A stretch of DNA of 64,000 nucleotides from a virus (taxonomy: Duplodnaviria; Caudoviricetes): the IMG/VR virus record IMGVR_UViG_3300032270_001615, positions 22,852 through 86,851 of that record, one strand, 5' to 3'. The notes under the pieces were generated by a model. The model ran no database searches. It was not told the origin of the DNA and saw only the letters and a program-made list of their open reading frames with translations. Position numbers and translations under genes: made by a program. This document shows positions 28,419 through 56,528 of this stretch, piece by piece (the first letter of the stretch is position 1; every line of letters begins with the position of its first letter).

Positions 28419-28476
28419 TTCTCCTAAAAACAGAAATGGTTCATTTTCCCTCATACACAATCTTTCCGTATATAGC

Positions 28477-29998: not shown

Positions 29999-32158
29999 TT
30001 ATTGGTTTTTAGAAAATCTTCTCTGCCAGTAACTAAGGTTTTCTTTTCCGGATCTACCAAGTCCGCCTTCTGCCCACTGTATAAACTTGTCTTCATCGTA
30101 GAATTTTGCAACACCACCAATTACTTCTACGATTTTTTTAGGGTCAGAACCTTTAGGGACATCAGTATTCCAAAGGGTAAATTCATCTAACGTTCCGTCA
30201 TTAAGGTAACCATTTACAAGGCCGTATGTAGATGAGTGAACATTGGTCGTAATCTCTTCGGCTATAGATCTTCCATCTTCAGCTCTTCTTGCACGAAGCC
30301 TCTGTATTGCGGTATCCGTTGGAGTGAAAGCCCAGTGTCCAATGTTGCTGTATCCACGGTCGCGTATAGACCGGTAGTAGCGCATGCGCTGACCAGTTCC
30401 TTCTGTGATTATGTCCATTCCACCGCTTACAGCATCGTCGACAACCCTTGTGGCCGAGTTTGCTGATTCATAGTGAACAGCACCAGCACCACGACCACCA
30501 GCGTATCCAACCAAGCCTTGCTTGATGAAGTCTGGGTCTACGTGAGCAGCTTCGTCGTTTTTTGGAATCAGTCCTCTTTTTTGCAAGTAGTCAACAAGTG
30601 TTGATTTACCCATTCCTGGAGCTCCGGCTATTGCGAAATGACGCTTGTCTCCACTCTTCTTATTTCTGAATTGAGGTTTAACTCTATCCAGGATTATCTT
30701 GCCCATTTCCTTGCCGCCAACATTTGGTTTTCCAACATACCTTTCAGAACGCATTCCTCTTGTAGACCTTGAGCCACGACCTTTTCCTGGACCGTAATTA
30801 TTGTAGAAGCGCTCTAATTTCTTGTAATCTTTATCAGTAAGGCTTTCTTTGTCTTTCTTGTGTTTATCCACAATTGGACGAAGTGCATTGAAGCTTGGGT
30901 TTGCATACGCCCAATCCAAATGAGCCTTTCTTTTCATTCTCTTCAAGTGATCCTTCATTGGATCTTCGCCTCCAGTTGTTGAAGGCATTCCTGGTGCTTG
31001 AGGTTTCGCTACTGCAGGTGTTTGAATACGTGCACGTGGCGTTGCTGGTCTTTCAAATGGGGTTCCTTCTTGGACAACCATGTCTCCGTCAGCATCTATT
31101 GCGTTTGGGTCAAACCTTGCATTCACGTTGTTGAGTATTCTTCTGCCAAGGCTCTTCGAACCAATTTTTACGCAACCATTACTCATTTTTCCGTGACGAT
31201 TTCTCCTTTTACCGGTTGGAGCATATCCAGGCTCACAAGGGTTTATGAAATCCGGAAGTTTGTTAAAACTTCTTGTTGATTCAATAAATGATTCGTTATC
31301 TGACATCGAACCAGATTCATCAGACTTGTACTTTCCTTTTACTGCGTCTTCCATTGCTTGTCTGATGCTGTTTTGATCATTCTTTGGGCCACGCTTTGTG
31401 CCTTTTTTCTTCTTGCCGTTCATGTCAACACCAGTGGCTGTTGTTCCACCAAGAATAGCTTCTTTCACCAATGGGATAAACCCGTTGATTTCTTCAAACA
31501 AAGATTTTTTTCTTCTTAGTTTTGTCAGATCATCTCGGACGACTGTTCTTATTCTTCTGGTAAGAGCCTCTTGCTGATGTCTTCTTCCAAGTGCAGTTGT
31601 TCCGCTCAGTCTTGAATAGTCCGTCATGTTGGTGCATGGCATCCAAACGGTTCTTCCTGTTTTGGAAACTCTCCTGCTTACACCGATACAGCCAAGCTGT
31701 CTTGAGCGTGCTCTTGCAGACTCAATATCGCTAAAAACGTCAACGTCGTTGTCTCTTGGTGAAAATGGGTTTACTCCCTTTTCTTCAATTGACTCATAAG
31801 CAGCTTTCCCCATAGAAGAAGATTGCACACCACTTCCGACCCCAGAAGGAGTTGTGATTCTTGTTAATCCACCATCTTGTGATGTTTCAATTCCGTAGAC
31901 TCCTCTTTGTCCAAGACGAAGCCATTCTTTCTTCTTTTTCTTTCCTTTTATGGTTCTTGATTTTTGCCAGTCTTCAACTTCCGACAAAGCCGTTTTTCTT
32001 CTTGTTGGTTCAGCTGCATTCGAGATTCTGTCCAGCTCTTCTGGGGAGGCGCAGGGATTCCACTTTCCGTTTTTGTCTTGGTGTGCTCCAGAACAGCCGA
32101 TAATCTCAGCCATTCTTATTGCTCCAAGCTTCCCAGTGAGTGAAGGGTCTTTTTCCAT
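29999..32158 (-). CDS. tagged modular protein with C-terminal zeta-toxin-like P-loop kinase
   Basis: GAPGMGKST, VDPDFIK, HYES, ITEGT; DPNA tag; Cys-pair micro-motifs. Confidence 0.75.
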   Translation of the reverse strand: MEKDPSLTGKLGAIRMAEIIGCSGAHQDKNGKWNPCASPEELDRISNAAEPTRRKTALSEVEDWQKSRTIKGKKKKKEWLRLGQRGVYGIETSQDGGLTRITTPSGVGSGVQSSSMGKAAYESIEEKGVNPFSPRDNDVDVFSDIESARARSRQLGCIGVSRRVSKTGRTVWMPCTNMTDYSRLSGTTALGRRHQQEALTRRIRTVVRDDLTKLRRKKSLFEEINGFIPLVKEAILGGTTATGVDMNGKKKKGTKRGPKNDQNSIRQAMEDAVKGKYKSDESGSMSDNESFIESTRSFNKLPDFINPCEPGYAPTGKRRNRHGKMSNGCVKIGSKSLGRRILNNVNARFDPNAIDADGDMVVQEGTPFERPATPRARIQTPAVAKPQAPGMPSTTGGEDPMKDHLKRMKRKAHLDWAYANPSFNALRPIVDKHKKDKESLTDKDYKKLERFYNNYGPGKGRGSRSTRGMRSERYVGKPNVGGKEMGKIILDRVKPQFRNKKSGDKRHFAIAGAPGMGKSTLVDYLQKRGLIPKNDEAAHVDPDFIKQGLVGYAGGRGAGAVHYESANSATRVVDDAVSGGMDIITEGTGQRMRYYRSIRDRGYSNIGHWAFTPTDTAIQRLRARRAEDGRSIAEEITTNVHSSTYGLVNGYLNDGTLDEFTLWNTDVPKGSDPKKIVEVIGGVAKFYDEDKFIQWAEGGLGRSGKENLSYWQRRFSKNQ

Positions 32159-32160
32159 TC

Positions 32161-32547
32161 TTAATCTACAATTACAACTTCTTCGTTTACTGGCTTTAGC
32201 TTCTCTGATTCGATCAGCGCTTCTTCGCGATCTGGGTAGCGAGATCTAAACTGTCTAGCTTCTTCTAGGTCTGTTTCAAATTCTTTTTCAATTTTTGAGA
32301 AAGGGTCCGAAAACAGTTCAACACTTGGGTCCATGTTTGACTTGTAGTTAACCCTATTGATTTCTTTATCAAAAGCTTTTTCTAATTTTCTACCAAGTTC
32401 TGTCTTTGCGGGGAAGTTGTAATCATCTGGTCCACCGAACTTATCCTTAGGCATGAATGCAAACGGTGGATATAGAAGCAACTCTGCTATGTCTGCTTGT
32501 TTTTCAAGAAACAAGATATGTGCTGCGCGTATTTCTTCCATGATCAT
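32161..32547 (-). CDS. small acidic protein
   Basis: 128 aa, 4-nt overlap with upstream 1454-aa gene. Confidence 0.65.
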   Translation of the reverse strand: MIMEEIRAAHILFLEKQADIAELLLYPPFAFMPKDKFGGPDDYNFPAKTELGRKLEKAFDKEINRVNYKSNMDPSVELFSDPFSKIEKEFETDLEEARQFRSRYPDREEALIESEKLKPVNEEVVIVD

Positions 32548-35500
32548 CCAAATCTGTTAATAATGTCCTGTTGGCGAGCTATCAGTGTATCTGCTATTTT
32601 CTTACGCTCAACCATGTCGCTGATCATGGTATCTACGGTTTTCCTGATCTGATCAGATGTTATTAAGCGCAATCTAGCCACTTGAGTCTTGATCTGATCT
32701 GGAGTCAATTTGCCGAAGACTCTTGCTGCAGTCGGGTTTACAGATGGATCCCTGAGGGTATCCATTTCTCCTGCAACATCACCAAATGCCGTTGATCCTC
32801 CGGTGCCCTTGCGCCCTGCATTAGCTCTAAACAGTATTGCTCCGCCGGCATCTATTGTAACTGGATTGCCAGAGCTATCAACTTGAGTGTTGTTATTCAA
32901 TAGGGCGTCCCAGTTTCCAAGCCATGCGTGTGTAACGAAAGTGTCCGCGATGGCGTCGTTCTGAGATGAACTGGCAGGAGATATATCTGTCATTATCTTT
33001 GAGACAACTCTTGGTGATCCGTTTTCATCTCCAAGATTTATTTCTGGCGTCTTTACTCCAGCAAGATTGTAGAGCCTTGAAGCTAGAACTTCGTTCTCGG
33101 CCTGTATCTGAGAGTTCGGTTGCTTGACGTAGTGCTCCACACCATTTCCGTCCCTATAGGTTCCTCCAGCGTTTGATCCTCGCTGACCACCAGTCTTTGT
33201 CCAACTTGTAACGTCAACGACTCCCTGAGCCTTCTTTTGGGCCTTAGAAGCCTTTGTAGCCTTCCTCTCGCCCTTAGCAAGCTTCTGAGCCACTTCGTCT
33301 TCAAGAGGAACATGGACAGCAGCAATCGATGATCTGTCATGTAGAAGAATTACGTTTGAGTGACTGCGCTCAAGGCTGACGCCGATGATTGGTGCGAATC
33401 TTCCTTCTTCGTCCGTTCCAGCTGCTTTATTCAAGAACGATATTGCTTCTATGGCATCAGCTTTTGCTTTTACGCTATCTTTTCCGCTTCTGTCCATTTC
33501 TTCAAGTTGACTAATGATTGAATCCGCTATTGAGTAAGAGGCTGTTCCGCTGCGACTACTATGTGTTTCTGCCAAGCCTTTTCTTAATGCTGCAGCAATT
33601 TCTCCAGAAGTCAATTGCGAGGCTCCATCTTTTCCGCCCATTTCCTGGATTGCGGTCATCATGGTTTCAGTTATCTTGTGCATTGCCTGTTGCTCGTTTT
33701 TAAGCGTCTGCTTATCAACAACTGTTGCTGAAGGTGGAATAAGAGCAAGGATGGTGTGTCGGTCATCTCTACCACCTCTGTATCCGTTCCAGGATTCAGG
33801 TTTATCCGTAAAGTATTCGCCAAAGCCGTGAACTTGTCCACCTTGGCCAGGAACGAATCTGTCAGGGTTTGTTAAGAACTGCTCAACGTATGCTTCACCC
33901 TTGACTTTTTCATTTCCTGTTCCTCTGACGATTGGAGTCCATCCAGCGTCGATCAAATCCTGAACTTCGTCTTTAGATATAAGTACAGGTTCATTGGAGA
34001 AACCAGTGTTTTCCCAAAGGTTGGAAATTGCTTGTCTGCGTTGAGCTTCTCTTCCGAGTCCTGCATCCTTTGCGTATTCACGAGAAACGAACGCAAGAGC
34101 CGAGGTGAATCTTGGATTAACCGTAAATGTTCCGTCAGCGTTTCTTGTAACCATCTTGTGGTTATCGGACTTATTGCCCTTGACTTTTTCCTCAAGCTTG
34201 GAAGCACTTCTGTTTCTTCTGAGTCGAGCAGCGAGTTCGCGCTTCGCAGCCATGAATCTGAGCTTTTTCTGCTCAATTGCAAGTTCAGGGGACGTCTCAG
34301 TGAGTTGTCTACCTCGTCTGTTTCTTGTTGCAGACTTACGGGCAGCTTTTAGCTCACGCTTTCTCTTTCGTTCTGGATTGACTCGGAGGAAACGTTGACG
34401 AGTATCTGCCAACTTTTTGTCTTCGTCCGTTAGTGCGCTTAGTCCTGTATCCAATCCTCTTGCGCGACCCCAGAATGATGATTCTTCTCCGAGGCCAAGT
34501 TTCTTGATTTCTGAACCACGCATCTTTGTTTTTCCGGTAACTGCTTCAGCTACTTTTTTCTGCGATTCAGTATGCAGATGCTCAACCATTTCGTAAGAAT
34601 TGGAATCACGCATTTCAATCAAGGTCTGCATGTCGTCGAGCATTCTTTGAGCTTTTTCAGCTGGCGACAAAAGGGGATTGCCATCCTTGTCTACCTTTGG
34701 CTTTCCATCTTTATCTATTGCCACTGTGTCGATTCGTCCTGCCGCTATTTCAGCGTCTAGAACGAGTCGCATTTCGGTTATGTCGGAAGTGGTTAGCTTG
34801 TCGTCGTGATTTCTTGGTGCAAAAGTCCCACCTCTGCGAGTTTGTTTTTCTGCACCACGCATCTGTCCGCGCCACCAAGCAGCAAAGTATGATGTGCCAA
34901 ACTCGGAGTCACTAGGATTTGGGTTTCGTTTTGTTGGCTTTTTCTTTCCACCTTTGAGAGTGTTCGTCAGCTCTGTCTCAAGTTCCTGCATCGCCTTCGC
35001 AGCTTTGTCTTTATCGTTTGGAGCAAGACCCTCTACAAATCTGCCGTCGTTTGGACCAACCTTCTTCGATCCGGCACCAAAGACCGCCTTCTTTCCTTTT
35101 TCTGGTTTGGCATTTGGAACTGTTTGTACTCTTGCAATAGATGATTCAAGTCTTCTTGCGCGTCCTGGCATGGTTGAGCCAGATCTTCTTCTGCTTGGCA
35201 TGCCGCGAGCTTCTGTTGAAGTGATTTCTGGAGTTTTAGGAAGGGTACGCATGTGACGCTGCTCAGCTTGCCTCACTTCGCTTCTTGTCATTCCGAGTAT
35301 TTTTGCCATGTCTTCAAGGCTTATTACGCCAGTCATTCTTGCTGCGTATATTTGCTCGTCACTAAGTTTTTGCATTGGTTTTGGAACAGCCGATGCTTCG
35401 CTTGGTGTTATTCCAAGATATTCTGGTCTGATCGCAAATGGCAAACGGAGCCTGCTGCCCTTATGCATTTCGTTTATGTGAGCTTCCACGTCGTACATCG

Positions 35501-36908
35501 ACATGGTGAATTCTTGGGCTACACGCCTATATGTTTCAGCTGGATTTTCATTTGGCTTTTTAGTAAACGAATCGTACACTGCCTGAAGAGTGCTCTCTTC
35601 GAATTCCCTTCGAGGAAGCATTTCCCCGTTTGGACCACGTTGTCCTGGAAATCTTGCAAGTGTTGGCCCGCTTGAGGTTCTTGTGGATTTTGGTTTTGAT
35701 CCACCGACAGCAGCTCTCACCGCATTGGCTTGTCTATTGACCCTCTGCGACTGCATGCCTCGCGCTGGTTTTTTCTTTCTAGATACAACCGGCATGTCAG
35801 AAGGTACTGTGCCTTTGACATAATCAATAAGGTCAGTAAGTCTTCTGTCCCCGGCCAGCGATCCATTATTGAATTCGTCTTGCAAGTTTGATATTAGGTC
35901 GTTTTGCTCATTTCTTGTAAGTGAAGAAATGCTGTCTTTAGCCTTTTTTAGCAAAGGTGTGATTGCATCATTTGCACCATCTGCCTGTTCCAGTAAATCG
36001 TCAATGACTCCTTCTGGGTCTGTGTTCTTTATTGGTTTTGCATTATCTCTTGCTGAAGCCATTCCAGTAGCGCCTTGCGAGGCATTGTTTACGACACGCT
36101 TAACCGGCTTTGGGCTCGTATCAGGTCGCTCAAATGGAGTGCCTTCTTGAATTATCTTGTCAAGGTCGGCATCTATTGCATCTGGATCAAATCTTGCATT
36201 TGTTGCACGCAGCGTTCTTCTTCCTAGACGAGCTGCACCGCTGCCGAGCTTTGGTCCAATATCTTTTTTGCTCATTCCATCAAAAAATGAAGCTCCAACA
36301 GATTTTCTCTGAATTGGAAGAACCAACTTTTCTCTTGAGTCAACAATCAAATTTCCAAGTCTTCTTTCGAATCCGTTAGACATTTTTTCGCGCAACTCAG
36401 AATGAAATACGCTTCTCTCAATTCCTTTAGACTTGGAGTTAAAGCGATTGGTGTCTATATCAAATGCATGTTTCTGCGACTTGAATTCAGTAATAAAAGA
36501 AGAAAGTTTTTGATCGTTCTTGAATGCAAGTGCTTTGAAGTTTATTGATCTTGTCTTTTGCTGACCCTGCCCAAGTATCGGGGAATCGCTTACATTGATA
36601 AAATCTTTTTCAATATCGTGCTTTACTGATTTGGTTTTTACATTGAACTGGCTTGTGCTCTTTAGGTCTGCCTCGCTAATCCCGAGCGTTTGCGCTAGAT
36701 CCCTGTTTGGTATCTCAAATTCAGTTCCAGAAACACCAAATGGAAGGGAGAAGTCGTCCTGAGACTTTGCTTCACTGTTGGCCCATTTGGCCCACTCTCC
36801 AGAACTCTCATTAACGCCAAAATAGGTAATCGATTTTCCTGACTTGACTGCATAGCCGTATACTTCGCCGCCGATTTCGTCTTTAAGGATTGATACAAGC
36901 TTCATCAT
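32544..36908 (-). CDS. 1454-aa tagged modular protein (HTH, PARP-like ART, HipA/PI3K-like kinase)
   Basis: DPDA tag; SLEDMAKILGMTRSEVRQAE; IVRGTG...GFGEYFT; YVK..ENEVLA..WLGNWD..N..IDAGG. Confidence 0.75.
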   Translation of the reverse strand: MMKLVSILKDEIGGEVYGYAVKSGKSITYFGVNESSGEWAKWANSEAKSQDDFSLPFGVSGTEFEIPNRDLAQTLGISEADLKSTSQFNVKTKSVKHDIEKDFINVSDSPILGQGQQKTRSINFKALAFKNDQKLSSFITEFKSQKHAFDIDTNRFNSKSKGIERSVFHSELREKMSNGFERRLGNLIVDSREKLVLPIQRKSVGASFFDGMSKKDIGPKLGSGAARLGRRTLRATNARFDPDAIDADLDKIIQEGTPFERPDTSPKPVKRVVNNASQGATGMASARDNAKPIKNTDPEGVIDDLLEQADGANDAITPLLKKAKDSISSLTRNEQNDLISNLQDEFNNGSLAGDRRLTDLIDYVKGTVPSDMPVVSRKKKPARGMQSQRVNRQANAVRAAVGGSKPKSTRTSSGPTLARFPGQRGPNGEMLPRREFEESTLQAVYDSFTKKPNENPAETYRRVAQEFTMSMYDVEAHINEMHKGSRLRLPFAIRPEYLGITPSEASAVPKPMQKLSDEQIYAARMTGVISLEDMAKILGMTRSEVRQAEQRHMRTLPKTPEITSTEARGMPSRRRSGSTMPGRARRLESSIARVQTVPNAKPEKGKKAVFGAGSKKVGPNDGRFVEGLAPNDKDKAAKAMQELETELTNTLKGGKKKPTKRNPNPSDSEFGTSYFAAWWRGQMRGAEKQTRRGGTFAPRNHDDKLTTSDITEMRLVLDAEIAAGRIDTVAIDKDGKPKVDKDGNPLLSPAEKAQRMLDDMQTLIEMRDSNSYEMVEHLHTESQKKVAEAVTGKTKMRGSEIKKLGLGEESSFWGRARGLDTGLSALTDEDKKLADTRQRFLRVNPERKRKRELKAARKSATRNRRGRQLTETSPELAIEQKKLRFMAAKRELAARLRRNRSASKLEEKVKGNKSDNHKMVTRNADGTFTVNPRFTSALAFVSREYAKDAGLGREAQRRQAISNLWENTGFSNEPVLISKDEVQDLIDAGWTPIVRGTGNEKVKGEAYVEQFLTNPDRFVPGQGGQVHGFGEYFTDKPESWNGYRGGRDDRHTILALIPPSATVVDKQTLKNEQQAMHKITETMMTAIQEMGGKDGASQLTSGEIAAALRKGLAETHSSRSGTASYSIADSIISQLEEMDRSGKDSVKAKADAIEAISFLNKAAGTDEEGRFAPIIGVSLERSHSNVILLHDRSSIAAVHVPLEDEVAQKLAKGERKATKASKAQKKAQGVVDVTSWTKTGGQRGSNAGGTYRDGNGVEHYVKQPNSQIQAENEVLASRLYNLAGVKTPEINLGDENGSPRVVSKIMTDISPASSSQNDAIADTFVTHAWLGNWDALLNNNTQVDSSGNPVTIDAGGAILFRANAGRKGTGGSTAFGDVAGEMDTLRDPSVNPTAARVFGKLTPDQIKTQVARLRLITSDQIRKTVDTMISDMVERKKIADTLIARQQDIINRFG

Positions 36909-38920: not shown

Positions 38921-38921
38921 T

Positions 38922-39578
38922 TTATCCGCAGCAACCTTTAACATTTGGGTCAAAATCTACTGAAATCTCATTGCCGTCTTCGTCTTCTCCAACGTGTTCC
39001 CAGTTTGAATTGTCTCTCAAGTACGAGGCAAATTCTGGTTCCATTTCGATGAAGTCTTTCATTACCAACATTCCGTGAACGAAGTCATCATTTGTCACAA
39101 CTGGTCTTGTGTCTTCAATTTCTCGCCAGTTTTTAGTTGAAAAAAACATGTCGTCATCAAGGCTCTTCCCAGGAGACATGCTAGCAAGACGTGCATTTGG
39201 TGGATTGATTGGCCTATTTAGTCTTGCCGCAAACTCTCGGCCAGTCCATTCATTTTTTTTAAGCTTCTTCAATTTGTTGCGACAATTTTTCATCGTTGGA
39301 TGATGGCAACCTTCGTTTGGCCAAAGTCCGGTTGTTTCGTGATGAAGCCAAGCGCATATGTTCTCAAGGGGGTAAAGTTCTGGATGGTTAGCGAGAATGA
39401 CGCGACACCTTCTGAAACCTCCGTCTTTAAGCATGATTGGACGCCAGTAACGAAGAAGTCTTTCCAAGTTTCCTCTTCTCATTCCAGGACTACTACCGCC
39501 AGCTCCAGGCTTGTTTGGAGTCACGTCTCTTTGAGCAAGGCCTCTAGCGCTTGCTTTTTCTTCGAACATCTCATCCAT
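38922..39578 (-). CDS. conserved actinophage head-module protein
   Basis: LERLLRYW...GGFRRC...ICAWLHHETTGLWP motif, recalled from actinophage capsid-maturation regions. Confidence 0.65.
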   Translation of the reverse strand: MDEMFEEKASARGLAQRDVTPNKPGAGGSSPGMRRGNLERLLRYWRPIMLKDGGFRRCRVILANHPELYPLENICAWLHHETTGLWPNEGCHHPTMKNCRNKLKKLKKNEWTGREFAARLNRPINPPNARLASMSPGKSLDDDMFFSTKNWREIEDTRPVVTNDDFVHGMLVMKDFIEMEPEFASYLRDNSNWEHVGEDEDGNEISVDFDPNVKGCCG

Positions 39579-42900: not shown

Positions 42901-43068
42901 ATTTGTGATTTGTATCAACGATTCAGAAGACTTCACAGTAGGCCAAAAGTCCACCAGTTTAGATTCTCCGTTTTCGGAAGTAATCACGCCATCGTTAAAT
43001 CGCGTCGTTGAGTCGACTATGTAGTAGAGGCGTTTGCCTTCTAGATTTGCTACAAGTACGGCTTTCAT
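39916..43068 (-). CDS. 1050-aa tagged protein, HExxH metallopeptidase-like
   Basis: DPDA tag; MIHETGH; distal ELFSEL. Confidence 0.7.
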   Translation of the reverse strand: MKAVLVANLEGKRLYYIVDSTTRFNDGVITSENGESKLVDFWPTVKSSESLIQITNTKFHETLWSEGVGQDKAYWHSCFVAKRFSVDESLLKGVVIRNDIFNRRLKIEKTTNRAIDFKTSLSTPDEKSVFRKLGQRIGDGAERATGRIRGFRAGATFDPDAVDADMDGFVQEGTQFARPAAPGKVPDVPSTNASSGNDILESQKKNNKRQSIGSIARAFSSRFHFFDPAGDSRKKTRWIDRSSAVIDAEFKKQEDKINNLYNDGKKISSVGDAKKVLSQIAPKANIDFLDNKNDTDNLSPYESALFLGIAHGLRVAPHLKEAEISFQKSDINETAQGSQSMRPPIFGASGRKIFEISERPPAVDPNTQRMDDRRTRSARHTIRYADEMSKAARVRGGRIRNGGRYQQGTFDSAAYDLTSLRVAAAYLFEQSDDPDYKKFTELADQIDRRKSAEINDTVTEQLQKEYETLRELFEKSMSNLVAQNPKDLDERVEEAKLAMMRAVMIHETGHAAHQEKAYQDAIKAATKARDAHVKKYQAMHDRLREITDIVSAGPSDRDVVRALQDEFTKIQTELSGSFFTGEKDLEKLLKYSGPELFPFYTWHLAHGAGSKNVERKIAEGLLDRQSARTLSDLMAGMHGSFQVDPVTGPDINPVSWLISYYEITQEDIKEAARVAAANGDLALVAAAQSQLQALDSVMNAIMSKSQDRLKESVLDKNGKEIPMSREMFRTLELLRNQSISSRDMADALDQGIVPRTPVGSAMKVRDLLDFVALGMVYGNRRVFKDGSFDPEVGVNSFMHQGSPEFNKMREDLSLLNMAIQNNFSFISDVASVETRAKMVEAIRRLGLVNQIGHPDPFAASESMLERVNNLFDSLSISDTFSGTQVPNPLDASPNAAAQLIDQALTRAIISISGDRQDYSTSKNAGLIFTLTAIGRHTYDDLTPEEIRIAENIAKYGGGSPQASYMSTLTNFPIAEWLRSEWGENRVELFSELAVIAALRLSLYSAERDSSGTILSRKLNKREIEVLKKLLSWYEPGAELNLGSADLPKDR

Positions 43069-49400: not shown

Positions 49401-51907
49401 TCAGCCATCTCTTCAGGGTTTTTACCATATAGCCAGCCAGGTGATCCGGCATTCAATCCTTTTTTGGATTTTTCCAATATTTTTCGTATTCGCCTACTAG
49501 ACATTCCGCGGATATCCTCAGCCGAGTCTTCTGCTTCTTTGGCCAGCTTCCTTGCGGATTTTCCTGCAGCAATTTCTGCCTCTTTTATGTCGATTGCTCT
49601 TAACGATCTAGTGACTGCAGCATCTGTTGCGTTTACCAAACCAAATTGACGAGCACCCCTAAGTTCTGAGATCAATTCTGCTACAACCGCTTGTTGCTGA
49701 ACTTTCCAATCCTTCATGAACTGGGTGGCTTCTTTGTCTGTGCCGGCAATAAGCGATTCTGAACGATCAATCCACATGTCAACGTCTCTGTCTGGTATCA
49801 AGCCAGATGAGTAGAGTGAATCAAGCACTCTTTGCATTTCGTCAACGCCACCCTTGTTGAATGCATCTGACAGTTGACTAAATATCTTAAGTTCCCTCAT
49901 GTAGTCAAGCGGCATCTTTCCGCCTAGACCATTCTCGGAAATAAGGTTCATTACATCTCTAGTGGCTTGATTCTCAAATAGTTCAAGAATGTCTGGGAGC
50001 AGACCGCTTACTTCGCCTCCGAAGAGCACGTCATAAAGAGCTTCTTCAACGTTCTCAAATTCCCCATCAACTGCAGTGTTGTTTATGACATCCATTGCAA
50101 TATCGAATGTCAGGTGATGGCCAACCTCGTGGGACACCGCGTACATGGATTGTGCTCTTTCGCCACCAAACTCGTCGACAAGTTCACCCCAGTACCCAGC
50201 TCCTGATTTTGTTTTATCGTACTTATAATTAAAGAGTTTGTTTATTGCCAGTCTTCGCGCATCGGAGTCTGCAGCATTTGCTATTTCGTCCAATATTGCA
50301 GATTCCATTGCATCTGCGGAGTCGTCTGCTGGCTCAAAAAGTCTGTACTCGCCGTCGGCTATTAGTGGTCTTCCATAACCCCTGCCTTGTCGCATGAGTA
50401 GCATTGGGTTCCAGTACATAACAAAGTTGCCAGCCTCATCAACCCAGGCTTTTGCTTCGACTTCTGAAAAGTCCGACTCATTGCTATCTGGGTTGAGGGC
50501 GATTATCTGTGAGAATTTAGAAAAAAGTTCAGGACTTGTATTTGCCATATCAAGCATTCCGTAAAGAAATCCTTGCTCTTTGGCTATATACCCAGCTAGC
50601 GCCCGATTGAACAATCCGCTGTCTCCAACAAAAGTTGATCCAGTGTTCGCCTGAAAGTTCAAAGCATATTCGATCATTTTTGTCTTGCGGCTGAGTTGAT
50701 CTTTTGTCAGATCCTTGAATACCGGGGATCCGTCTGGTCCAATTACTGTTTCTCCAAACAGCTGATCCCAAATATGTCCGGCAACAGCACGCATGTGCGT
50801 GTCAATCGCTTCTTCAAGGTCCGCTGGAGTTATCCCTGCCCGACTGCCTGTTCCAGTCCAAAGTATTCCACTTAGATCAAGATCAGGATTTGCATCTTGC
50901 AGAGCGAGGATTGCTGATTTCGCTACCTTGAGTGGATCGTTGTCAAACGTAATACCGTTTGGACTTCTGGTCATTTCTGTGAAATTGGGATCAGATTTTC
51001 TTATCTGCTCAATTGCAGAATTCTCTATTCTTGCAACTTCTTCTAGAATCGCTCTTCTTCTTGCAGCTATCTCTACGATGTTTTGGGCTTGTTCTTCTGG
51101 AAGGTCCAATTCTCTTACAGCATTTTCTATAGCCTCTGGAGATGGATCCTCTGGCAGAGAGTCTTCAACAGTATTTGCGATCTGTATATCTGACAGTAGG
51201 CCAGCAGCTTTTCTAACTGCCTCCTCAATCGATCTTCTTTTGTTTTGAGGAGTTATATCGAAACAGTTCGACCCGAATCTGTCGGTAAATTGGTTTGCCG
51301 CAGGAACACCAGGTGGACACCTAAACCTGCCGGCGGCATCAACCAGAACACCAGACCTAGCTGCTGCACGAACACCCACACCTGCGAGTGGCTGTATTTC
51401 ATCTAGCGAGTCACCAAGCGACTTGACTGAAATACTTCCTGTTCTTGGGTCTGCTTTTATATCTCTGTATTTGAGGTTGATTTTTTGCTTGCCATCACCA
51501 AAATGAATTCTGGCCAGATGTTTTTTAGTTTCTTCTGGGGACAGACCGATTGGAGCGTTGACCCAACCTATGTTCGGCTTGCCTGACTGGCTTCGTAATT
51601 CCTGTGCTGTTACATACGGCTTAAAACGCATGCCAAGGATCCCTCTGCGGTTCTTGTTTATGCGCACTCCACCAACAGACCAAATTGCTTTGCCAAGTTT
51701 TTTTCTTGGTGCCTTTTTGGGTTTTGCTTTTTTTGTTTTTGGTGCAGCTTTTATGGATATATCCAAATCAAGTTGATTTGACTTGATCTGCATTTCCATT
51801 GAAGAAGTAAAGTTTTTGGCGATCTCGTTAAAATCAGGGCGAGTTTTTCTATCGTCCATCGCACGTTTAGACGTGATTGTACGTGTGCGCTTAAACCTAC
51901 CCGTCAT
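43478..51907 (-). CDS. 2809-aa giant modular protein (2 HExxH, 2 DUF3626-like, degenerate ART-like)
   Basis: RCPPG tag; HEVGH; HEYGH..EAWAEGF; two RPASGYV..YG..GDS..EA domains. Confidence 0.75.
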   Translation of the reverse strand: MTGRFKRTRTITSKRAMDDRKTRPDFNEIAKNFTSSMEMQIKSNQLDLDISIKAAPKTKKAKPKKAPRKKLGKAIWSVGGVRINKNRRGILGMRFKPYVTAQELRSQSGKPNIGWVNAPIGLSPEETKKHLARIHFGDGKQKINLKYRDIKADPRTGSISVKSLGDSLDEIQPLAGVGVRAAARSGVLVDAAGRFRCPPGVPAANQFTDRFGSNCFDITPQNKRRSIEEAVRKAAGLLSDIQIANTVEDSLPEDPSPEAIENAVRELDLPEEQAQNIVEIAARRRAILEEVARIENSAIEQIRKSDPNFTEMTRSPNGITFDNDPLKVAKSAILALQDANPDLDLSGILWTGTGSRAGITPADLEEAIDTHMRAVAGHIWDQLFGETVIGPDGSPVFKDLTKDQLSRKTKMIEYALNFQANTGSTFVGDSGLFNRALAGYIAKEQGFLYGMLDMANTSPELFSKFSQIIALNPDSNESDFSEVEAKAWVDEAGNFVMYWNPMLLMRQGRGYGRPLIADGEYRLFEPADDSADAMESAILDEIANAADSDARRLAINKLFNYKYDKTKSGAGYWGELVDEFGGERAQSMYAVSHEVGHHLTFDIAMDVINNTAVDGEFENVEEALYDVLFGGEVSGLLPDILELFENQATRDVMNLISENGLGGKMPLDYMRELKIFSQLSDAFNKGGVDEMQRVLDSLYSSGLIPDRDVDMWIDRSESLIAGTDKEATQFMKDWKVQQQAVVAELISELRGARQFGLVNATDAAVTRSLRAIDIKEAEIAAGKSARKLAKEAEDSAEDIRGMSSRRIRKILEKSKKGLNAGSPGWLYGKNPEEMAELVVPDNKESLIALMSMSRFKTRKPNRKQLNIIEKRIKKEWGGIDNIDFSPESIAKFRKKMAATFRSYPEFAGVVQRFGSPPFVVPKDFFESAVGSSASGVGGFYGTGTRSIMMNPGAVGTSGYGKGLFGLFKTSGDERNGFRNLVADGLTDNGALFSGIAIHEYGHWLSFSANFAEDGDESDVRNFIDAGVDEETLKTVVSQHENKNGTFSRFRFKQLEELHWLAFREEIEVTRKNAAAIAEKVFEQGFDNVQSYARSSDVPIVLTRYGAHGGSQEAWAEGFTAVVTEQKWLVNDAMKAAVYRMIGTNSSLERSILAGFNSRRSKEKPAKVSDVKKRSLSIFVKNRNMNEEEIGAVVELEKANEFIKNDEPHAALAVLSDEASDGSGPDVLDQTLEKISADGAMPPRDIEKLERLTRAISNSPRGSSTSEIFMNAKQEADRMDSSFQPPVETVKQESVGRSVGEIRGNVPQSRTESILAEAKSMGIEIDSYEKANGEKIIRFSSGSTMDAADWLGDFNAPSTDEEKSAFEKRTGFSFDKRSELLRQFAADGGSEFDAFLKFGSPQDRNSFGARLYFAREMAIGRGDNERVAEIDNFIDEISAMDPEELYAAVNEAARRMDSQFDDRVSVAVSDPLAVINEGRYHTVHDRDSMARTGSRSVSERAGNFDPDSVARIRRGHEQTFLGIDAEDQSEATMRMRPASGYVSGVSTIQGRRQKLKDIYGEDVEIQHDYSLGSDARQIRDNGGFNNRAGLKAYGNSTIVLKPEVSQRSLVFRGDSISDQGTYSPAMRLSTMGGQELQSQYFHPLSVLYQDRTGDSTGVASPSLNTGTPYSEAMVLGSFEPQDIEAIISDPFSMREDGNFGTMNMTGLNPESSLNLTSIISAAKTRDRLSNSGIDAVIDSEHFPLDEVEPFNPSMTRKWVERQIASGKWKDVSPDELIEDETTTPYEALLKYHRSGKANTIFDHPDNEPGNAEKNTQNLVAMIDEELERVKSVKQTVVDDVDIQKAAGFPSRRRPLRDVLGKEGFVKETRQQSINHLTSARNTLLSSLGESERAAVIEATKNISSVSIPTTTEQIETMIRNSVYKKKFGKNKDADLTDNKKEIENLINNFIIPFNNVLSRNQLGQSYRTQMNLRVSPENGITLNEGDIIDIPNHFRSDVLSSDSEIMDSAIGFSSRRFIPRDQWIEQQRAGGMQRDANGTYWRMTRSGSWIEWDEPVDDEPYYPQRRRPSVKAPDDATDLIRDARKIDNDFVRSVVGQFDDRGTLTLKQWDALRRTVERSRSKNPEMFTQADKDVLDGLPQAPEEAVPVGTDGSAKVVILAHETDKGIPDVVGDDPSIHTTAITMPPTRLKVEYIGEDGTVYVSVDEQNHVDPVEQMTELIEGVGENLNEAEKTEVAVAKTALQQHQKEKKTRIRGFSSSREKPKSTKTGFEKYQEEAASYRQADDVVSQSEIQPESDKTKRIMQSLESAGAKFAQPLSQEALDAEDQVNFGRVSIPYEKRVALHRKSTFETFDAIRAKSRGEEFFTQEDRVYGGVADSSAQSPRSDEDRQWRMKQATNRQISFNNFFAVLPQSVVDHINSRTNEELMEDLKTAALQFNAGIDRRVRVRVKSPYLRRFAESGVYKTTHDEGIRSEHSQSHDRKNAEVQFGIPSSTPDELRPASGYVLHKDSIASVEEHGRSEIAASGDSPILGEFFDWDSYSQSSEFGNRVGVYGGIEMILNDDVAHRTAITGGDSLNGWHNPSMLEETDPERILMSLAAPIHHDSSNMQAQNISLLRSMLEQNYKYTARLEHAKNDIRNIYHEAVIAGSFDASDVSEIRVSHSDMSFHNPETRSQIIDKSLIEALNLSESEMAIVAPFLETFLEKGEASQYRRDSGIMMFPMKDISDLAAHLNHTRMLRQLQEKGFKGRIMRVNRNGVDLMDASLYSGYRPGMTVEQILRGRIVEGMKKEIQKLLDSQKSKDKPLERIDF

Positions 51908-51942
51908 GGCGGGTCCTTCTTTTCAGAATGTTTTTAAAGTTG

Positions 51943-53376
51943 TTATTCTTGTTCGTCGACTTCGGCGGCAAGAAGTTCAAACTCAAGCAACGATGCGATG
52001 AAATCATCAGATTCAAGTGACTTTGATTCGCCATCTTGTCCTCCTGCGACCCATGACGTTGGAATAAGTGATTCAGCGCCAAGAGCCTGTGCGCGCTTCA
52101 TGATATGCAGTTTAGCTGCTTTCTTATCACTCGCGCGACCATATGCTTGAATTGCATTTTCCAAGTCAGCTTTTGTTGCAATTGGGAAAGAACCGTCTGG
52201 AAGAGCAGTTCCTTCTTTTGCCATTGCGTTTCTCATGTCCTCGCTGAAAGCTCTTTTAAGTGCAATCTCAGCTGCTTCTGCTTCGATATCTTCTGCTTCT
52301 TCTGGCTCGTAAACGTCGTAACCCATTACTTCGCCATCAAGCGAAACAAAAACGTCGTAAGACTTTCCATTGATGCCTTCAATTTCTACTGCGTAAGTAT
52401 CAAAACCTTCAAACACATCTGGCTCAACAGCAACCACGTTTCCTTCAATTGACTTGACAGCAATTTCTGCTGCTTCAGACATGTCGATCACCATCATGTT
52501 TTCAAAAGCAGACTTCTGTTCAAATGAGTCACTGTCTAGCTTGTGCCAGCCGAGAACTTCTGCTGTGGTTCCGTCAACGAACATCTCAACTGCTCTTCCG
52601 TCTTTAACTTGTACGTCAACAACGAACATGTCAGCGTCAGATGAGTAACCAGAGTCAATGACCTTGCCGTCGAACATGTCTTCGGCAATTCCTTCTACGT
52701 GGAGAAGTCCTGGCATTCCCTTTTCTGCCATGCAACCGCCTGGACAGTCATCGCAAACAGATGACCCACCAGGGTAAACCTTGCGATCAATTCCGCATAG
52801 GTAAGCTGTCTTACCAACTGCAGCAAGATCCATGCCCATGCTTGCGAGTCTTCTTTTGCGCATTTTTTCCATGTCTGAAGTAGGCATCATTCCTTCTTCT
52901 TCCTCTTCATCCTCTTCGGGCATTTCTTCTTCGCCCTCTTTCATGCGAAGCGCTCTTCTGGCAGCGCCCATTCCCCAGCCTTTTTCCATTTCGTCTTCTT
53001 CTACCGCCATAGGCTTTCGCGGCTTTACGATGCCCTCTTCTTCTTCTTCGTCTTCTTCGTATTCCATTTCGGAACCGTCAGTAGCGTCTCCCTTTGTGTA
53101 TCCCATCTCGTCTACAGACATCTTCTTCTTTTTCTTCTTTAATGGCTTTTGATTTTCGTCGACACCGTAGCTGTTTTCTGGCATGCCGTCGGTCAGGTTG
53201 CCCATCATCTCTTGTTCAAGCGGCGAACCCTTTATCTGCACAGGCATCGCTCCGCACTTGCCACAAACTTTTGCACCTGCTTCAAAGCCGCACTCACTAG
53301 AGCCAAGACCCTTTGCGCATTTGGTGACATTTCCGTCACTGTCAATCTTGACAACTGCTTTTTCGTCGTAACTCAT
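51943..53376 (-). CDS. acidic head-assembly / scaffold-like protein with two PepSY-like repeats
   Basis: Cys clusters, poly-E tracts, A.EIAVKSIEG.VV.VE..Y.VEI; ALPDGSFPI..DLENAIQAYGRA. Confidence 0.6.
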   Translation of the reverse strand: MSYDEKAVVKIDSDGNVTKCAKGLGSSECGFEAGAKVCGKCGAMPVQIKGSPLEQEMMGNLTDGMPENSYGVDENQKPLKKKKKKMSVDEMGYTKGDATDGSEMEYEEDEEEEEGIVKPRKPMAVEEDEMEKGWGMGAARRALRMKEGEEEMPEEDEEEEEGMMPTSDMEKMRKRRLASMGMDLAAVGKTAYLCGIDRKVYPGGSSVCDDCPGGCMAEKGMPGLLHVEGIAEDMFDGKVIDSGYSSDADMFVVDVQVKDGRAVEMFVDGTTAEVLGWHKLDSDSFEQKSAFENMMVIDMSEAAEIAVKSIEGNVVAVEPDVFEGFDTYAVEIEGINGKSYDVFVSLDGEVMGYDVYEPEEAEDIEAEAAEIALKRAFSEDMRNAMAKEGTALPDGSFPIATKADLENAIQAYGRASDKKAAKLHIMKRAQALGAESLIPTSWVAGGQDGESKSLESDDFIASLLEFELLAAEVDEQE

Positions 53377-53519: not shown

Positions 53520-56500
53520 TTAATTTTTATTTCTTGATGAAACAGGTTCGGTTGTTTTGTCTATGAAGGTTGACATTGCTGCTTGCGCCATCTTGTCCAT
53601 TAGTTGTGCAAATATTTCCGCACGTGAACCACCAGTTTCCACTTGTCTGTCTACAACAGCCATTACTGCTTCAAGTATTTTGTCTGTCTCTTCTTGTGTG
53701 GTTAGCAACACTCCAGCGTTTGTTCTTCTGGATCCAGTCTTTCCTGACTCTTGACGCTTCATGATTGTTTGAAGCAGAGAAAGAGAGTCTGCGGTCTTTC
53801 TGTCCCCGGCTTTTTGAGCTTCGGTTATTTCTTTTGGCAATGAATCTTCTATTTGCTTGAACCAAGTTGCTTCTGCGTTTATTTGAGTTCTTCCTGCTTT
53901 TTCGCCATCTGCGCTTCTACTGGAAGCAAACCCTCTGGCCATCTTCTTGCGTTTTGATGAGTCAAGGTATGACTGGGCCAATTTTCTCTTTGAATCAAAA
54001 CCTTCAACTGGTGGCCTTGGAGCGTTTGATTCACCTCGTACAAGAGAGGCACCTATTGCTGATGGACCTAAATCATCTACTTCTGGGTCTTCTGATGATG
54101 CAAGTCTCGATGCGTCTACTGCGTCAAGTTCACCCCTTGATCCCCTGTCTATAAATTTGTCTTTTGCGTAGAAACCGTCAAGGGCTGCGAGTCTTCCGTC
54201 CAGTATTTCGATACCGCGTTGCACGTTTCTATCTGCCGGAGTCATGTTTCTCGTGTCCATTGTGGAGGAGTGCTTTTCAATTGCGTCCCTCATCTCCGTT
54301 ATTCCATCAAGAGTAAGGTCGTCTTCAAGCGTTATTGAAAGGGCGTCAATCAATTTCGCATGATCTTTCTTGTTGCCACGTGAATTTCGCTCGTTCAATT
54401 TCTCAATATAAGAAATTGCGTTCTGAAGGGACTCAACGTCGTTGGCTCGCATCTCTGCAGCCTCTTGTTCGGTTTTTGGAACATCCCTACTCAAGCGTTT
54501 GACGACTTTTCCAGGCTTTTCTTCCGTCTGTGGAGTCTGTCTTTCCGTGCGAGGTTTTTTAGGCAAAGATGATCTGCGTTTTTGCTTTTCTTTTGCTTCC
54601 TCAAGTGCTGTTTGTTCGTCGAAAACTCTTTGCATTTGTGCAACCCAGACCTCGCGATTCATTCCGCTATTTTCTGGTTTTAGATCAGTTGCAAGTCTTT
54701 CTTCTTTTTCGTAAGGATCTAGTGAGTCCCAGTTTTTAGGTTTTATCTCAAAGAAACTCTTACCGGTATCGGTTGTTGATCCAACTGTCCTTGAAGGCAT
54801 TCCTCTACCGGAGCCAGGACTGTGAAGAGCCTGTATTTCTTCTTCGCTAAATCCGAGATCTCGCAAACGCTTAAAACGATTTTCTTCAAGACGCTTCAAC
54901 ATCTCTTTGGCTGGAGTTGCGTCGATCTGACCTTTGTCGTCACGAACAACCATTCCTGGTCTACCTTGAGCTCCAGAAGCTATTTTTGGTGTGCGAGGAG
55001 TTGCCGGACGCTCAAACGCCGTACCCTCTTGAACTAATTTGTCACCATCTGCGTCTATCGCATCTGGATCAAATCTGCCGGTGAGTACGCGACCGGCACG
55101 CCTAGCTTTTCCCGGGCCACCGCCCCCGATTGAGCCGCCTAATGATTTAAACGCCGTGTCAATTGCATCAGTGAATCCGTCAGGAAGTCCTGAGGTGATT
55201 ACGATCCCATCCTCTGCGACATAAGTTTCAACTCTGTAGTAATCCAAGATTGGATCAATTGCCTGCTTGACGCGGAAAGCATCTTTTGTGTCCACCGGGA
55301 TTAAGTGCTCTTCGGTTTTTTCTTGCATTTCTTTTTCTGCAGATGAAAGAACTTCCTGAAGTGACTCAACGGCAGATCTAAGTTTTGAAAGATTTCTAGA
55401 GCTAAGAACTCGTCCTGCTTTGTATTCAATCTCTCCACCAAGGAGTTCATCTAGCGTCTCTAGCTCAATGTCGTCTGACTTGCGACGCTTCTTTGCTCTT
55501 CTGAAAACACCACCCAGAATGTTATCCCAGATTGCCTTTTCATCAGCACCACCCTCGACCAAGCCTGATTGTTCGCCGTCGTCAAATTCTTCTTCGTCTT
55601 CGACATCTGAGGAGTAAGCCTGTTCCGTGACGGAGGCTTTAATTCCAGGACGATTCATATCCATAGCTGGAACATACATCGTCTGCTTGATAACTCTTTC
55701 TGGTCTGGAGAACATGAATACTCGTCCGCCATCAGGTGTATGGTATCCAACCCTGAAGAACGAGCTCTCTCCGTCACTTGTCATTCTTTCAAACAAAACC
55801 ATATTGTCGGTGGCTTTGATAATCCTGACTCTTGATCCAGTCCTCTTCATCAGTTCAACAAGAAGTTTTGCTTTTCTGGAATCTTCTGCCGAAGTGGCGA
55901 CTCCCTCTGCAAACAGATTTGTGTCTTGCGCGTCATCGTCTTGATTATAGGTAGAAGGAATTCCTGCAACTATGGATGTTCTTCTCATATCCATTATCGG
56001 CATGTGATTTTTTTCTTCGCTCTTTACAGAAATTGTTCCAGTCAACTGATTTGCGCCGTGCAGAACAGGGCTAACTTCGTAAAGCTCAACTTCCTTGAGG
56101 ATATTTGCCTTCATGTTTTGATCATAAACAGCGTCAAGAGTTTTGTAGCCGATCGACCACTCTTGTTCAACACCAAAAAACGCTACGTTGGCAAATGCTT
56201 CTTTTCCTTTTTCTGATTGCAGATTAAACTGCACTCTTGCATAGAGTCCGCCAATTCCAGCAGCCTTCATTTTCTGAGGAAGACGTGGATCGCTTGCTGG
56301 AACTTCGTACATTTCAAGAACTTTGCCAATTGGCTCATTCCAGTTGTGGCCCCAAACCACTCGTGGCTTACGGCGCAGCAGACTCTTTGAGAATGCTCCA
56401 GATATAACTACGTCGCCAACAGAGTCCTTATTGCCAATTCCGGCAACGAAACACTCAACAATTCCTTCGGCTTGGTCTACGTTTATCTGACCAGCGTTAC

Positions 56501-56528
56501 CGGCCTTGTATTGAATGTCTTGTGTCAC
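53520..56528 (-). CDS. HK97-family prohead protease with ~830-aa C-terminal extension
   Basis: DSVGDVV..GAF, WGHNWNEPIG, WSIGY, LYEVSPV..GAN; GTG start with GAGGAG RBS. Confidence 0.9.
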   Translation of the reverse strand: MTQDIQYKAGNAGQINVDQAEGIVECFVAGIGNKDSVGDVVISGAFSKSLLRRKPRVVWGHNWNEPIGKVLEMYEVPASDPRLPQKMKAAGIGGLYARVQFNLQSEKGKEAFANVAFFGVEQEWSIGYKTLDAVYDQNMKANILKEVELYEVSPVLHGANQLTGTISVKSEEKNHMPIMDMRRTSIVAGIPSTYNQDDDAQDTNLFAEGVATSAEDSRKAKLLVELMKRTGSRVRIIKATDNMVLFERMTSDGESSFFRVGYHTPDGGRVFMFSRPERVIKQTMYVPAMDMNRPGIKASVTEQAYSSDVEDEEEFDDGEQSGLVEGGADEKAIWDNILGGVFRRAKKRRKSDDIELETLDELLGGEIEYKAGRVLSSRNLSKLRSAVESLQEVLSSAEKEMQEKTEEHLIPVDTKDAFRVKQAIDPILDYYRVETYVAEDGIVITSGLPDGFTDAIDTAFKSLGGSIGGGGPGKARRAGRVLTGRFDPDAIDADGDKLVQEGTAFERPATPRTPKIASGAQGRPGMVVRDDKGQIDATPAKEMLKRLEENRFKRLRDLGFSEEEIQALHSPGSGRGMPSRTVGSTTDTGKSFFEIKPKNWDSLDPYEKEERLATDLKPENSGMNREVWVAQMQRVFDEQTALEEAKEKQKRRSSLPKKPRTERQTPQTEEKPGKVVKRLSRDVPKTEQEAAEMRANDVESLQNAISYIEKLNERNSRGNKKDHAKLIDALSITLEDDLTLDGITEMRDAIEKHSSTMDTRNMTPADRNVQRGIEILDGRLAALDGFYAKDKFIDRGSRGELDAVDASRLASSEDPEVDDLGPSAIGASLVRGESNAPRPPVEGFDSKRKLAQSYLDSSKRKKMARGFASSRSADGEKAGRTQINAEATWFKQIEDSLPKEITEAQKAGDRKTADSLSLLQTIMKRQESGKTGSRRTNAGVLLTTQEETDKILEAVMAVVDRQVETGGSRAEIFAQLMDKMAQAAMSTFIDKTTEPVSSRNKN

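Follow-up and report, generated by a model that had tools for sequence, protein, structure and literature searches.

The sequence studied here is a window of 64,000 nucleotides that comprises the last 64 kb of the 86,851-bp linear virus record IMGVR_UViG_3300032270_001615 of IMG/VR, derived from an uncultured phage, probably of freshwater Actinobacteria. The record is 58% complete according to CheckV and has a G+C content of ~44%. It contains a head gene operon in which a block of ten genes, several of them encoding multi-module proteins, separates the gene of the S78 prohead protease from that of the HK97-type major capsid protein (MCP). This block is the subject of the present study, and all positions refer to the window unless otherwise stated. 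The operon is located on the minus strand and runs from the portal gene, its first gene (56632-58653, 673 aa, PF04860 with E 1.1e-49), to the MCP gene (28529-29860, 443 aa, PF05065 with E 8.6e-46). The TerL gene (58905-60209, plus strand) adjoins the portal gene and is divergent from the portal-to-capsid operon. Between the end of the protease gene and the start of the MCP gene lie 23,659 bp with ten co-oriented minus-strand genes, which we name by the number of residues of their products: p477, p2809, p138, p1050, p114, p218, p682, p1454, p128, and p719, in this order. Neighboring genes of the string mostly abut or overlap by 4-8 nt, and the number of promoter- or terminator-like sites within it is at or below chance. 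This layout agrees with a preliminary description of the window, according to which the protease and capsid genes are ~23.7 kb apart with co-oriented, mostly coupled genes in between. Of the gene sizes given there, the protein of '~670' aa is p682, while the others were as noted.

The nearest cultured relatives of the MCP, with 46-47% identity, are the MCPs of the Gordonia phages Chidiebere and GMA6 and of the Brevibacterium phage Cantare, and in all three phages the protease and MCP genes are adjacent. Chidiebere was considered as a further bearer of the block and rejected, as only portal, protease and capsid protein are common to both and as it possesses a 12-kb accessory block of its own, situated between portal and protease. 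Within IMG/VR, 283 relatives of the MCP with ~70-79% identity were found, and all 80 loci that were fetched comprise large open reading frames (ORFs) upstream of the MCP gene. The gap between protease and MCP genes measures 18 kb (G001), 35 kb (G002) and 36 kb (G005) in complete or large relatives, of which G002 is a complete genome of 174 kb with terminal repeats. The MCP itself starts with a delta-like N-terminal region of ~125 residues, and the motif GANMPSPF (residues 124-131, 29468-29491), which is conserved in G001 and G002, is a candidate maturation site.

Two short sequence elements recur in the block and are described in detail below: a peptide tag of ~30 residues and matches to the motif G[MF]xSxR, hereafter called joints. 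Conventional annotation says little about the proteins around them. Pfam and PHROGs comparisons with whole block proteins gave matches limited to S78, Zeta_toxin, DUF3721 and, weakly, PepSY, and none of p1454, p2809 and p1050 had a sequence match among solved structures. The protease (53520-56528, minus strand, 1002 aa) carries its S78 domain at residues 20-173 (56010-56471; PF04586, Peptidase_S78 with 45.4 bits at a cut-off of 21; phrog_80 head maturation protease, E 4e-29), with the His and Ser motifs WGHNW (residue 59) and EWSIGY (residue 123). Its long C-terminal extension comprises a tag (55005-55073), the joint-like sequences GMVVRD (54939-54956) and GMPSRT (54786-54803), and the joints GFDSKR and GFASSR (53916-54002). 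Directly after the protease, as in nearly all protease-anchored loci of the family, follows the acidic PepSY-family protein p477 (51943-53376). Twelve of the 16 p477-family members match PepSY (PF03413, best E 1.8e-6), and p477 itself reaches 16.8 bits, below the cut-off of 24; it is a candidate scaffold or peptidase regulator. The polyprotein p2809 (43478-51907) has five joints, at residues 801, 1154, 1846, 2010, and 2254, and two zincin-like modules, with HEVGH at residue 593 and HEYGH at residue 998. Its conservation in relatives is limited to an N-terminal part (~164-237, RCPPG...FTD...C) and a C-terminal part (~2400-2800).

The N-terminal domains of p1050, p1454 and p719 are referred to as carriers for reasons given below. 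That of p1050 (39916-43068) spans residues 1-130, is homologous to the stand-alone protein p138 (43065-43481) and to ~132-aa proteins in relatives, and is followed by a tag (42532-42600) and a module with HETGH (residue 506). In p1454 (32544-36908) the carrier (36204-36908) is followed by a tag (36123-36191), by the joints GMASAR (36048-36065), GMQSQR (35742-35759) and GMPSRR (35187-35204), by a helix-turn-helix (HTH)-like segment, by a middle domain (33264-34121) and by a kinase-like domain (32547-33224). The carrier of p719 (29999-32158) has two DUF3721-like Cys motifs (31481-32131; DUF3721 match of 36.2 bits); further elements of this protein are a CxxGY...C motif, a tag (31046-31114), the joint-like GMPSTT (30974-30991), the joint GMRSER (30740-30757) and a zeta-toxin P-loop kinase (30233-30652). 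Two more members of the string are conserved. The Cys-rich p218 (38922-39578) is found across the family and in most relatives is joined to the C-terminus of a protease of ~700 aa, where protease ORFs of 665-840 aa match protease plus p218. The tag-free core protein p682 (36905-38953) ends with a domain of kinase-like fold (36908-37741); its N-terminal ~220 residues are predicted to be disordered, yet contain an invariant RCPEGYQYGGRFTD...C motif (38477-38518; alignment A4). Finally, p810 (12969-15401, minus strand) is encoded outside the head block and comprises an N-terminal tag (15192-15260), the joint-like GSMPSA (15141-15158), a zincin module (13842-14699, HEYGH at residue 366), the joint GFSSRR (13887-13904) and a C-terminal module.

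Several enzyme domains had been proposed for these proteins in the preliminary description, and they fared differently. A zeta-toxin P-loop kinase domain at the C-terminus of p719 is confirmed by profile comparison: residues 503-642 match Zeta_toxin (PF06414) with 39.7 bits (cut-off 22.3, E 4.6e-10) and include a Walker A motif, GAPGMGKST, at residue 512. The proposed HipA/PI3K-like kinase was recovered at the level of the predicted fold. Neither kinase-like domain, of p1454 or of p682, has a HipA_C Pfam match, and a profile of the C-terminal half of p1454 gave nothing useful against Pfam and solved structures. However, in an AlphaFold2 model of p1454 (residues 701-1454, pLDDT 76), residues 1229-1454 adopt a protein-kinase-like fold with a Foldseek E of 3.6e-5 to CtkA of H. 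pylori. The VIA Z scores are 15.2 for CtkA (root-mean-square deviation 3.2, 199 residues aligned), 14.2 for CotH, 13.6 for PI4KII-alpha and 12.1 for HipA, and the motifs YVKQ, GNWD..N and IDAGG are present. The modeled fold supports the assignment of this domain as a HipA/CtkA-like kinase. The second predicted kinase-like fold comprises p682 residues 405-682 (AlphaFold2, pLDDT 72), with VIA Z of 13.7 to CotH (5jda, root-mean-square deviation 3.5, 227 residues aligned) and 13.4 to CtkA (3akj). No DxG-type Asp is conserved in alignment A4 of p682, so that this protein may be a pseudokinase. Predicted viral structures in BFVD that match p682 include a 'minor capsid protein' as well as portal-fused and ADP-ribosyltransferase (ART) proteins, and a language-model atlas search with p682 was uninformative.

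Four HExxH modules are present, two in p2809 and one each in p1050 and p810. An alignment of 12 divergent sequences shows the H-E-x-x-H motif and a Glu downstream of it to be invariant or almost invariant, and the second p2809 module aligns with p810 and ten relatives. The motif on which the earlier peptidase assignment was based is thus well conserved, while the best profile matches stay below threshold (SprT-like with E 0.0044 and Peptidase_Mx with 0.0071 in Pfam; myroilysin with 0.047 among solved-structure peptidases); we regard the modules as probable zincin peptidases. The proposed ART did not find support in profile comparisons. Residues 930-1215 of p1454 are nearest to ART-PolyVal clusters in a language-model atlas (0.90), but profile hidden Markov model and hhalign tests were negative, the latter for the middle domain with both PF03496-type ARTs and the ART-PolyVal region of P0033. 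An ART in the middle domain of p1454 is consequently treated as a lead only. Phage_Mu_F (PF04233) gave no match at E<=0.01 in any of 14 block proteins.

Comparison with relatives places these modules on conserved proteins of the head operon. The core of the block within the family consists of p477, a p2809-like protein, p218 (usually as part of the protease chain), p682 and three small proteins that correspond to the carriers; as stand-alone proteins, the N-terminal domain of p719 measures 207-245 aa, that of p1454 247 aa and that of p1050 ~132 aa. The gene directly upstream of the MCP gene forms a graded series, from the carrier alone (207-245 aa) through carrier plus tag plus zeta domain (534-865 aa) to giants of 2281, 3915, and 5345 aa, which have the p719 carrier at their start and a zeta toxin near their end (alignment A3). 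This series identifies the cargo as C-terminal extensions on conserved head-operon proteins. The largest of these genes is a single ORF of 5345 codons in G002 (C1, ~50,217-66,254), which is located directly upstream of the capsid gene (48553-49872) and has seven lineage-specific joints. The S78 protease likewise heads polyproteins of 3190 aa (L158, G002) and 2758 aa (L125, G005), and S78-fused polyproteins in relatives reach 3352 aa. Giant proteins with Phage_Mu_F, Phage_portal_3, ADPrib_exo_Tox, NUDIX or LPD38 contain modules that share 37% identity with the kinase module of p1454, the MuF domain being seen solely in the distant homolog P0036. Since the modules of the block are found in relatives as covalent fusions with the prohead protease and with a portal, which by definition belong to the procapsid, gene comparison supports an association of the cargo with the head, and the earlier suggestion of a head-associated cargo independent of MuF stands.

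The joints link these proteins further. Of the 12 occurrences of G[MF]xSxR, 11 are in block proteins and one is in p810, while shuffled sequences gave a mean of 0.28 and a maximum of 3 in 2000 trials and non-coding frames 2 chance matches; the repeated junctions reported before are thus real. Their fuller form is [RA]-G-[MF]-x-S-[RS]-R, with polar, hydrophobic-poor flanks, and the form common to the family is G-Φ-x-S. Degenerate versions (GMPSRT, GMPSTT, GSMPSA) are found 5-60 residues past tags. Each lineage has a homogenized joint of its own, for example GLAS (11-13 times), RLSSG (14), RGMxS (12), GMRS (10), GLSSG (9), GPVGxM (11), PSGSM (8) or ISGRM (8). The homologous site before the zeta domain reads GMRSER, GLRSQQ, GFRSGR, GLKSS or LRSSG, depending on the lineage, and in G002 one code is found in the protease polyprotein, at the portal C-terminus, in an 852-aa protein and in the 5345-aa protein. 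A short motif that changes in step in many proteins of the same genome implies that one reader recognizes all copies. From their sequence the joints look like protease cleavage sites, and a protease would be the obvious candidate for this reader.

Both the fusions and the joint code bear on whether the block proteins reach the virion at all. They might instead be late cytoplasmic polyproteins that are never packaged, for example toxins freed at lysis and directed against grazers or competitors, with the joints as uncut linkers or recombination seams. A 'Trojan horse' role has indeed been proposed for ARTs of freshwater actinophages (PMC6802176), and p810 is encoded outside the head operon. However, cargo is covalently fused to prohead protease and portal in relatives, the genes lie within the portal-to-capsid operon in every relative examined, and without a reader it would be difficult to account for a joint code that is homogenized and specific to each lineage. 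We therefore consider this scenario very improbable.

The tag, of the form [FY]DP[DN]AxDxDxDxx[VI]QEGTxFxRP, is present in five in-frame copies, at residue 486 of the protease, 157 of p1050, 240 of p1454, 349 of p719, and 48 of p810. It is the sole similarity among these otherwise unrelated proteins (BLAST E 1e-7 to 1e-14) and, except in p810, follows an N-terminal domain of 130-480 residues. The shared tags of the preliminary description are therefore real in the protease, p1050, p1454, and p719, but they are not in p477, p2809 or p682, and only that of p810 is N-proximal. A tag profile run against 1.84 billion representatives recovered 958 protein clusters at E<=1e-3, the best 150 of which were examined. 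Among these 150, ~35 are S78 fusions, five with a p1454-type kinase module. In the S78 fusions, insertions of cargo that reach ~2000 aa separate the tag from a conserved C-domain (protease residues 570-1002) and are placed exactly after the tag and at the GMPSRT joint. The same 150 clusters include a portal fusion with three tags (P0171) and ~40 proteins with p719 or p1454 carriers. Modules are swapped on conserved carriers. A further 42 of the 150 are unrelated to the block and often have the tag at residues 3-20, and in many unrelated proteins it is located at residues 3-50 with no carrier ahead; a scan of viral contigs with P0046 for the context of such proteins found nothing. A G-Φ-x-S joint follows within 40 residues after the tag in 24% and precedes it in 7%, while 11% would be expected. 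Outside viral records, a DNA pattern search of 185,579 prokaryotic species genomes gave five matches, all on contigs of metagenome bins, four of which hold recognizable pieces of the same phage block. The bins of these contigs (L170-L174) are assigned to Phycisphaerae, Gammaproteobacteria, Acidimicrobiia, and Actinobacteria. Since the contigs are probably phage DNA that was binned in error, this taxonomy is no evidence of a host.

Given that the tag is usually N-terminal to a joint, cleavage at the joint would part it from the cargo, as with the capsid-targeting sequences of phage T4. Nevertheless, the idea that the tag itself is the capsid address appears doubtful to us, as G001 and G002 keep the same block with no tags or one weak one. 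A role as a calcium-binding or linker mini-domain of the DxDxDG type, with loading achieved by carriers or covalent fusion only, has about the same, rather low probability. Read from the sequence, the tag core D-x-D-x-D-G-x-[VI]-Q-E resembles a DxDxDG/EF-hand calcium loop, and the Asp-Pro bond of the tag is strictly conserved. A mini-domain would also fit the tag-free relatives, which have the same cargo on the same carriers, and the tags that are internal or in tandem, several in one protein. It fits less well with the many unrelated proteins in which the tag at residues 3-50 is leader-like, with its enrichment just upstream of joints and with its presence on the protease itself and on a portal fusion. 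In either case, the conserved carrier domains at the N-termini connect the cargo with the head more generally than the tag does.

From the gene architecture, the homologies, the fusions, the motif statistics and the two predicted folds we infer, with somewhat better than even confidence, that the block proteins are head-loaded and proteolytically processed polyvalent proteins of a non-MuF type. Proteins of the procapsid interior, namely the S78 protease and the three small carriers, would bear exchangeable C-terminal enzyme modules: a zeta-type P-loop kinase, a CtkA/HipA-like kinase, zincin-like peptidases, an HTH segment, and possibly an ART-PolyVal domain. The carriers, perhaps together with the DxDxD-QEGTxFERP tag between carrier and first joint, would co-assemble the cargo into the procapsid. 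During maturation the chains would be cut at exposed [RA]-G-[MF]-x-S-[RS]-R joints, and the released enzymes would remain inside the head until they enter the host together with the DNA. The S78 prohead protease and an encoded zincin are about equally probable as the cutting enzyme.

Several observations weigh against this reading. The complete genome G001 has a block of similar size without tags, repeated joint or HExxH, and from G002, which is essentially free of tags, it follows that the tag is not required for loading. G003 has giant multi-module genes and no detectable repeated joint. In addition, GANMPSPF in the MCP is constant while the joint code varies among lineages whose S78 domains are 72-78% identical, and the protease-headed polyproteins mostly lack a zincin in cis, which counts against a purely cis-acting zincin. 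Some block proteins could also be structural, a point discussed further below.

Two of these observations concern the cutter. A lineage-specific motif common to MCP and joints is ruled out by the constancy of GANMPSPF, and as the MCP has this constant motif in place of a canonical joint, S78 is disfavored as the joint reader. In its favor, S78 heads the polyproteins, and most of these lack a zincin in cis. Alternatively, the zincin-like peptidases might cut the joints, acting in cis on the joint C-terminal to them and in trans on all others, with S78 maturing only the MCP and p477 regulating the zincins. PepSY domains are known to accompany zincin peptidases as propeptide-type partners, and the conserved p477 may accordingly keep the encoded zincins in check. 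A GF.S joint is found at a fixed distance past the zincin module in several lineages, and while S78 varies little across differing joint codes, the zincins of G002 are without BLAST similarity to those of the present record. The candidate MCP site departs from the joint code, and zincin processing is a stated theme of polyvalent proteins (PMC5512222). However, HExxH is missing in cis from the majority of protease-headed polyproteins, which contain as many as 14 joints, G003 has a zincin and no repeated joint, and the zincin assignment is based on sub-threshold matches. We give this alternative a substantial chance, a little short of even. The co-occurrence of zincins and joints across five complete or large genomes favors neither cutter clearly: the present record has five tags, 12 G[MF]xSxR joints and four HExxH modules; G004 three tags, a joint of the same class and two HExxH modules; G002 no clear tag (one weak match), 22 matches to the pattern [PS]-[VIAF]-G-x-[ML] and two HExxH modules; G003 one tag, no repeated joint and one HExxH module; and G001 none of the three.

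Besides the identity of the cutter, the destination of the proteins has to be considered. The block might be largely structural, forming an ejectosome, a trans-envelope channel or a tail-associated assembly, in which the enzyme-like domains would serve entry and neither takeover nor toxicity. The internal core proteins of phage T7 and tape-measure-like proteins are comparable cases. Tail-sheath and tape-measure Pfam families gave no match in four large relatives and in the present record, and complete relatives were likewise without recognized tail genes; since the record is only 58% complete, this absence was not used as evidence. The p2809-like and p682-like proteins belong to the core of the family, and the p682 N-terminus is long, conserved and disordered with a hydrophobic stretch, as might be expected of structural proteins. 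On the other hand, modules of the zeta-toxin, kinase-like and HTH kinds are typical of effectors, the exchange of variable modules between lineages is free, unlike in usual structural cores, and polyvalent proteins with MuF or portal domains contain the same modules. A largely structural block is therefore unlikely in our view, and packaged, processed effectors remain our preferred explanation.

This explanation connects the block with several known systems. Polyvalent proteins are giant proteins of phages and conjugative elements that join disparate domains such as zincins, ARTs, kinases and DNA-binding domains (Iyer, Burroughs, Anand, de Souza, and Aravind, 2017; PMC5512222). They are encoded beside portal-terminase packaging genes and are predicted to be packaged, injected and processed by zincins (PMC5512222). 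The block shares with them the combination of disparate domains in one chain, as in p1454 (kinase-like, middle and HTH-like), p719 (Cys-motif carrier and zeta) and p2809 (two HExxH modules with other modules), its location between portal/protease and capsid genes with TerL adjoining, and the homology of the p1454 kinase module to modules in LPD38-, ART-PolyVal-, MuF-, and portal-bearing proteins. It differs in that MuF is lacking and the role of carrier falls to the S78 protease and to three small proteins of the head operon that are specific to the family, in that it has a distinct ~30-residue tag and a short, homogenized, lineage-specific joint code, and in that 18-36 kb of such genes lie between protease and capsid genes.

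In phage T4, the proteins IPI-III, Alt, and gp24 bear capsid-targeting sequences, N-terminal leaders of 10-20 residues that end in the gp21 site [LI]-x-E and are removed by gp21. Here, too, a short peptide N-terminal to a putative protease site is common to unrelated proteins and to head proteins, and in p810 and many other tag proteins it is placed at the extreme N-terminus, followed by a joint. However, the tag is ~30 residues long, mostly internal (157-486) behind a carrier, and without L-x-E or likeness to the T4 sequences, while the protease is of the HK97-type S78 family and the joint motif is unrelated to [LI]-x-E. Ejection or inner-body proteins of the giant phages phiKZ, 201phi2-1 and SPN3US have propeptides of 100-130 residues that are cut at a consensus motif, as verified by mass spectrometry (PMC5694885). 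The long N-terminal propeptides presumably direct cargo into the prohead, a single short motif marks the cleavage sites of many head proteins and of the portal, and ejection of the cargo is expected (PMC5694885). In contrast to the multi-module polyproteins of the present block, the giant-phage motif is A/S/G-x-E, the protease is T4 gp21-like and the cargo proteins are separate.

In MuF polymorphic toxins, and in proteins annotated in actinophages as 'capsid maturation protease and MuF-like fusion proteins', an effector is attached to a head-morphogenesis carrier with variable C-terminal domains. The block resembles them in having effector domains on head carriers inside the head module and variable C-terminal domains, and is distinguished by the lack of Phage_Mu_F, by several carriers and by many modules per chain. 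Literature searches found no description of the block, the tag or the joint code of this clade. The concept itself, which the preliminary description had considered as possibly undescribed, is already covered by polyvalent proteins (PMC5512222), T4 capsid-targeting sequences and giant-phage propeptides (PMC5694885).

If our reading holds, abundant phages of freshwater Actinobacteria would devote 20-45 kb, up to a quarter of their genome, to injected enzymes, with single genes of up to 5345 codons. Carriers, tag and cleavage code would make the question of which proteins are injected readable from sequence, each joint-bounded module being a candidate early effector or anti-defense protein, and the lineage-specific joint codes would constitute a natural experiment in protease-substrate coevolution. 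Tag and joint could also serve as a tool for loading foreign proteins into HK97-type capsids. One might further speculate that the tag and the adjacent G-Φ-x-S joint form a portable 'address plus release' cassette in a large and abundant clade of freshwater and marine phages with ~960 protein clusters, an idea we hold as tentative and rather improbable. Any protein behind such a cassette would be loaded into an HK97-type head and freed there, and the joint code would be rewritten in each lineage along with the protease that reads it. Besides that of T4, it would represent a second, independent and programmable capsid-packaging code, one that would deliver kinases, zeta toxins and peptidases into Actinobacteria.

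Some further features of the window and its relatives are worth recording. The best-conserved stretch of p682 (residues ~100-220, 38300-38660) reads RCPEGYQYGGRFTD..STCG, followed by a hydrophobic run, and is disordered in the AlphaFold2 prediction. Four large block proteins of G001 (572, 890, 955, and 931 aa) share a p682-type Cys motif near their N-termini, reminiscent of a second tag. A Cys-motif region common to p682 and p2809 was considered and discarded, as hidden Markov model comparison gave no match and the resemblance exists at the level of regular expressions only. Directly after p810 and far from the head operon lies p166 (12472-12972, minus strand), a DUF6321 protein; in several relatives a DUF6321 domain sits right after the S78 domain of the protease polyprotein (L158:9968-19540). 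The genes that follow TerL are Erf-like and exonuclease recombination genes and not structural genes. Three WhiB-family genes are present in the record (G000:C1:24913-25107, 7244-7435, and 31972-32178 in record coordinates), two of which fall within the window (2062-2256 and 9121-9327), and these genes support Actinobacteria as the putative host. Directly downstream of the MCP gene, an Asp/Asn beta-hydroxylase-like 2-oxoglutarate oxygenase is encoded (27921-28478, minus strand; PF05118, E 2e-14). Its position after the MCP gene is retained in G002, G003 and 17 other relatives, and the enzyme may act on a head protein.

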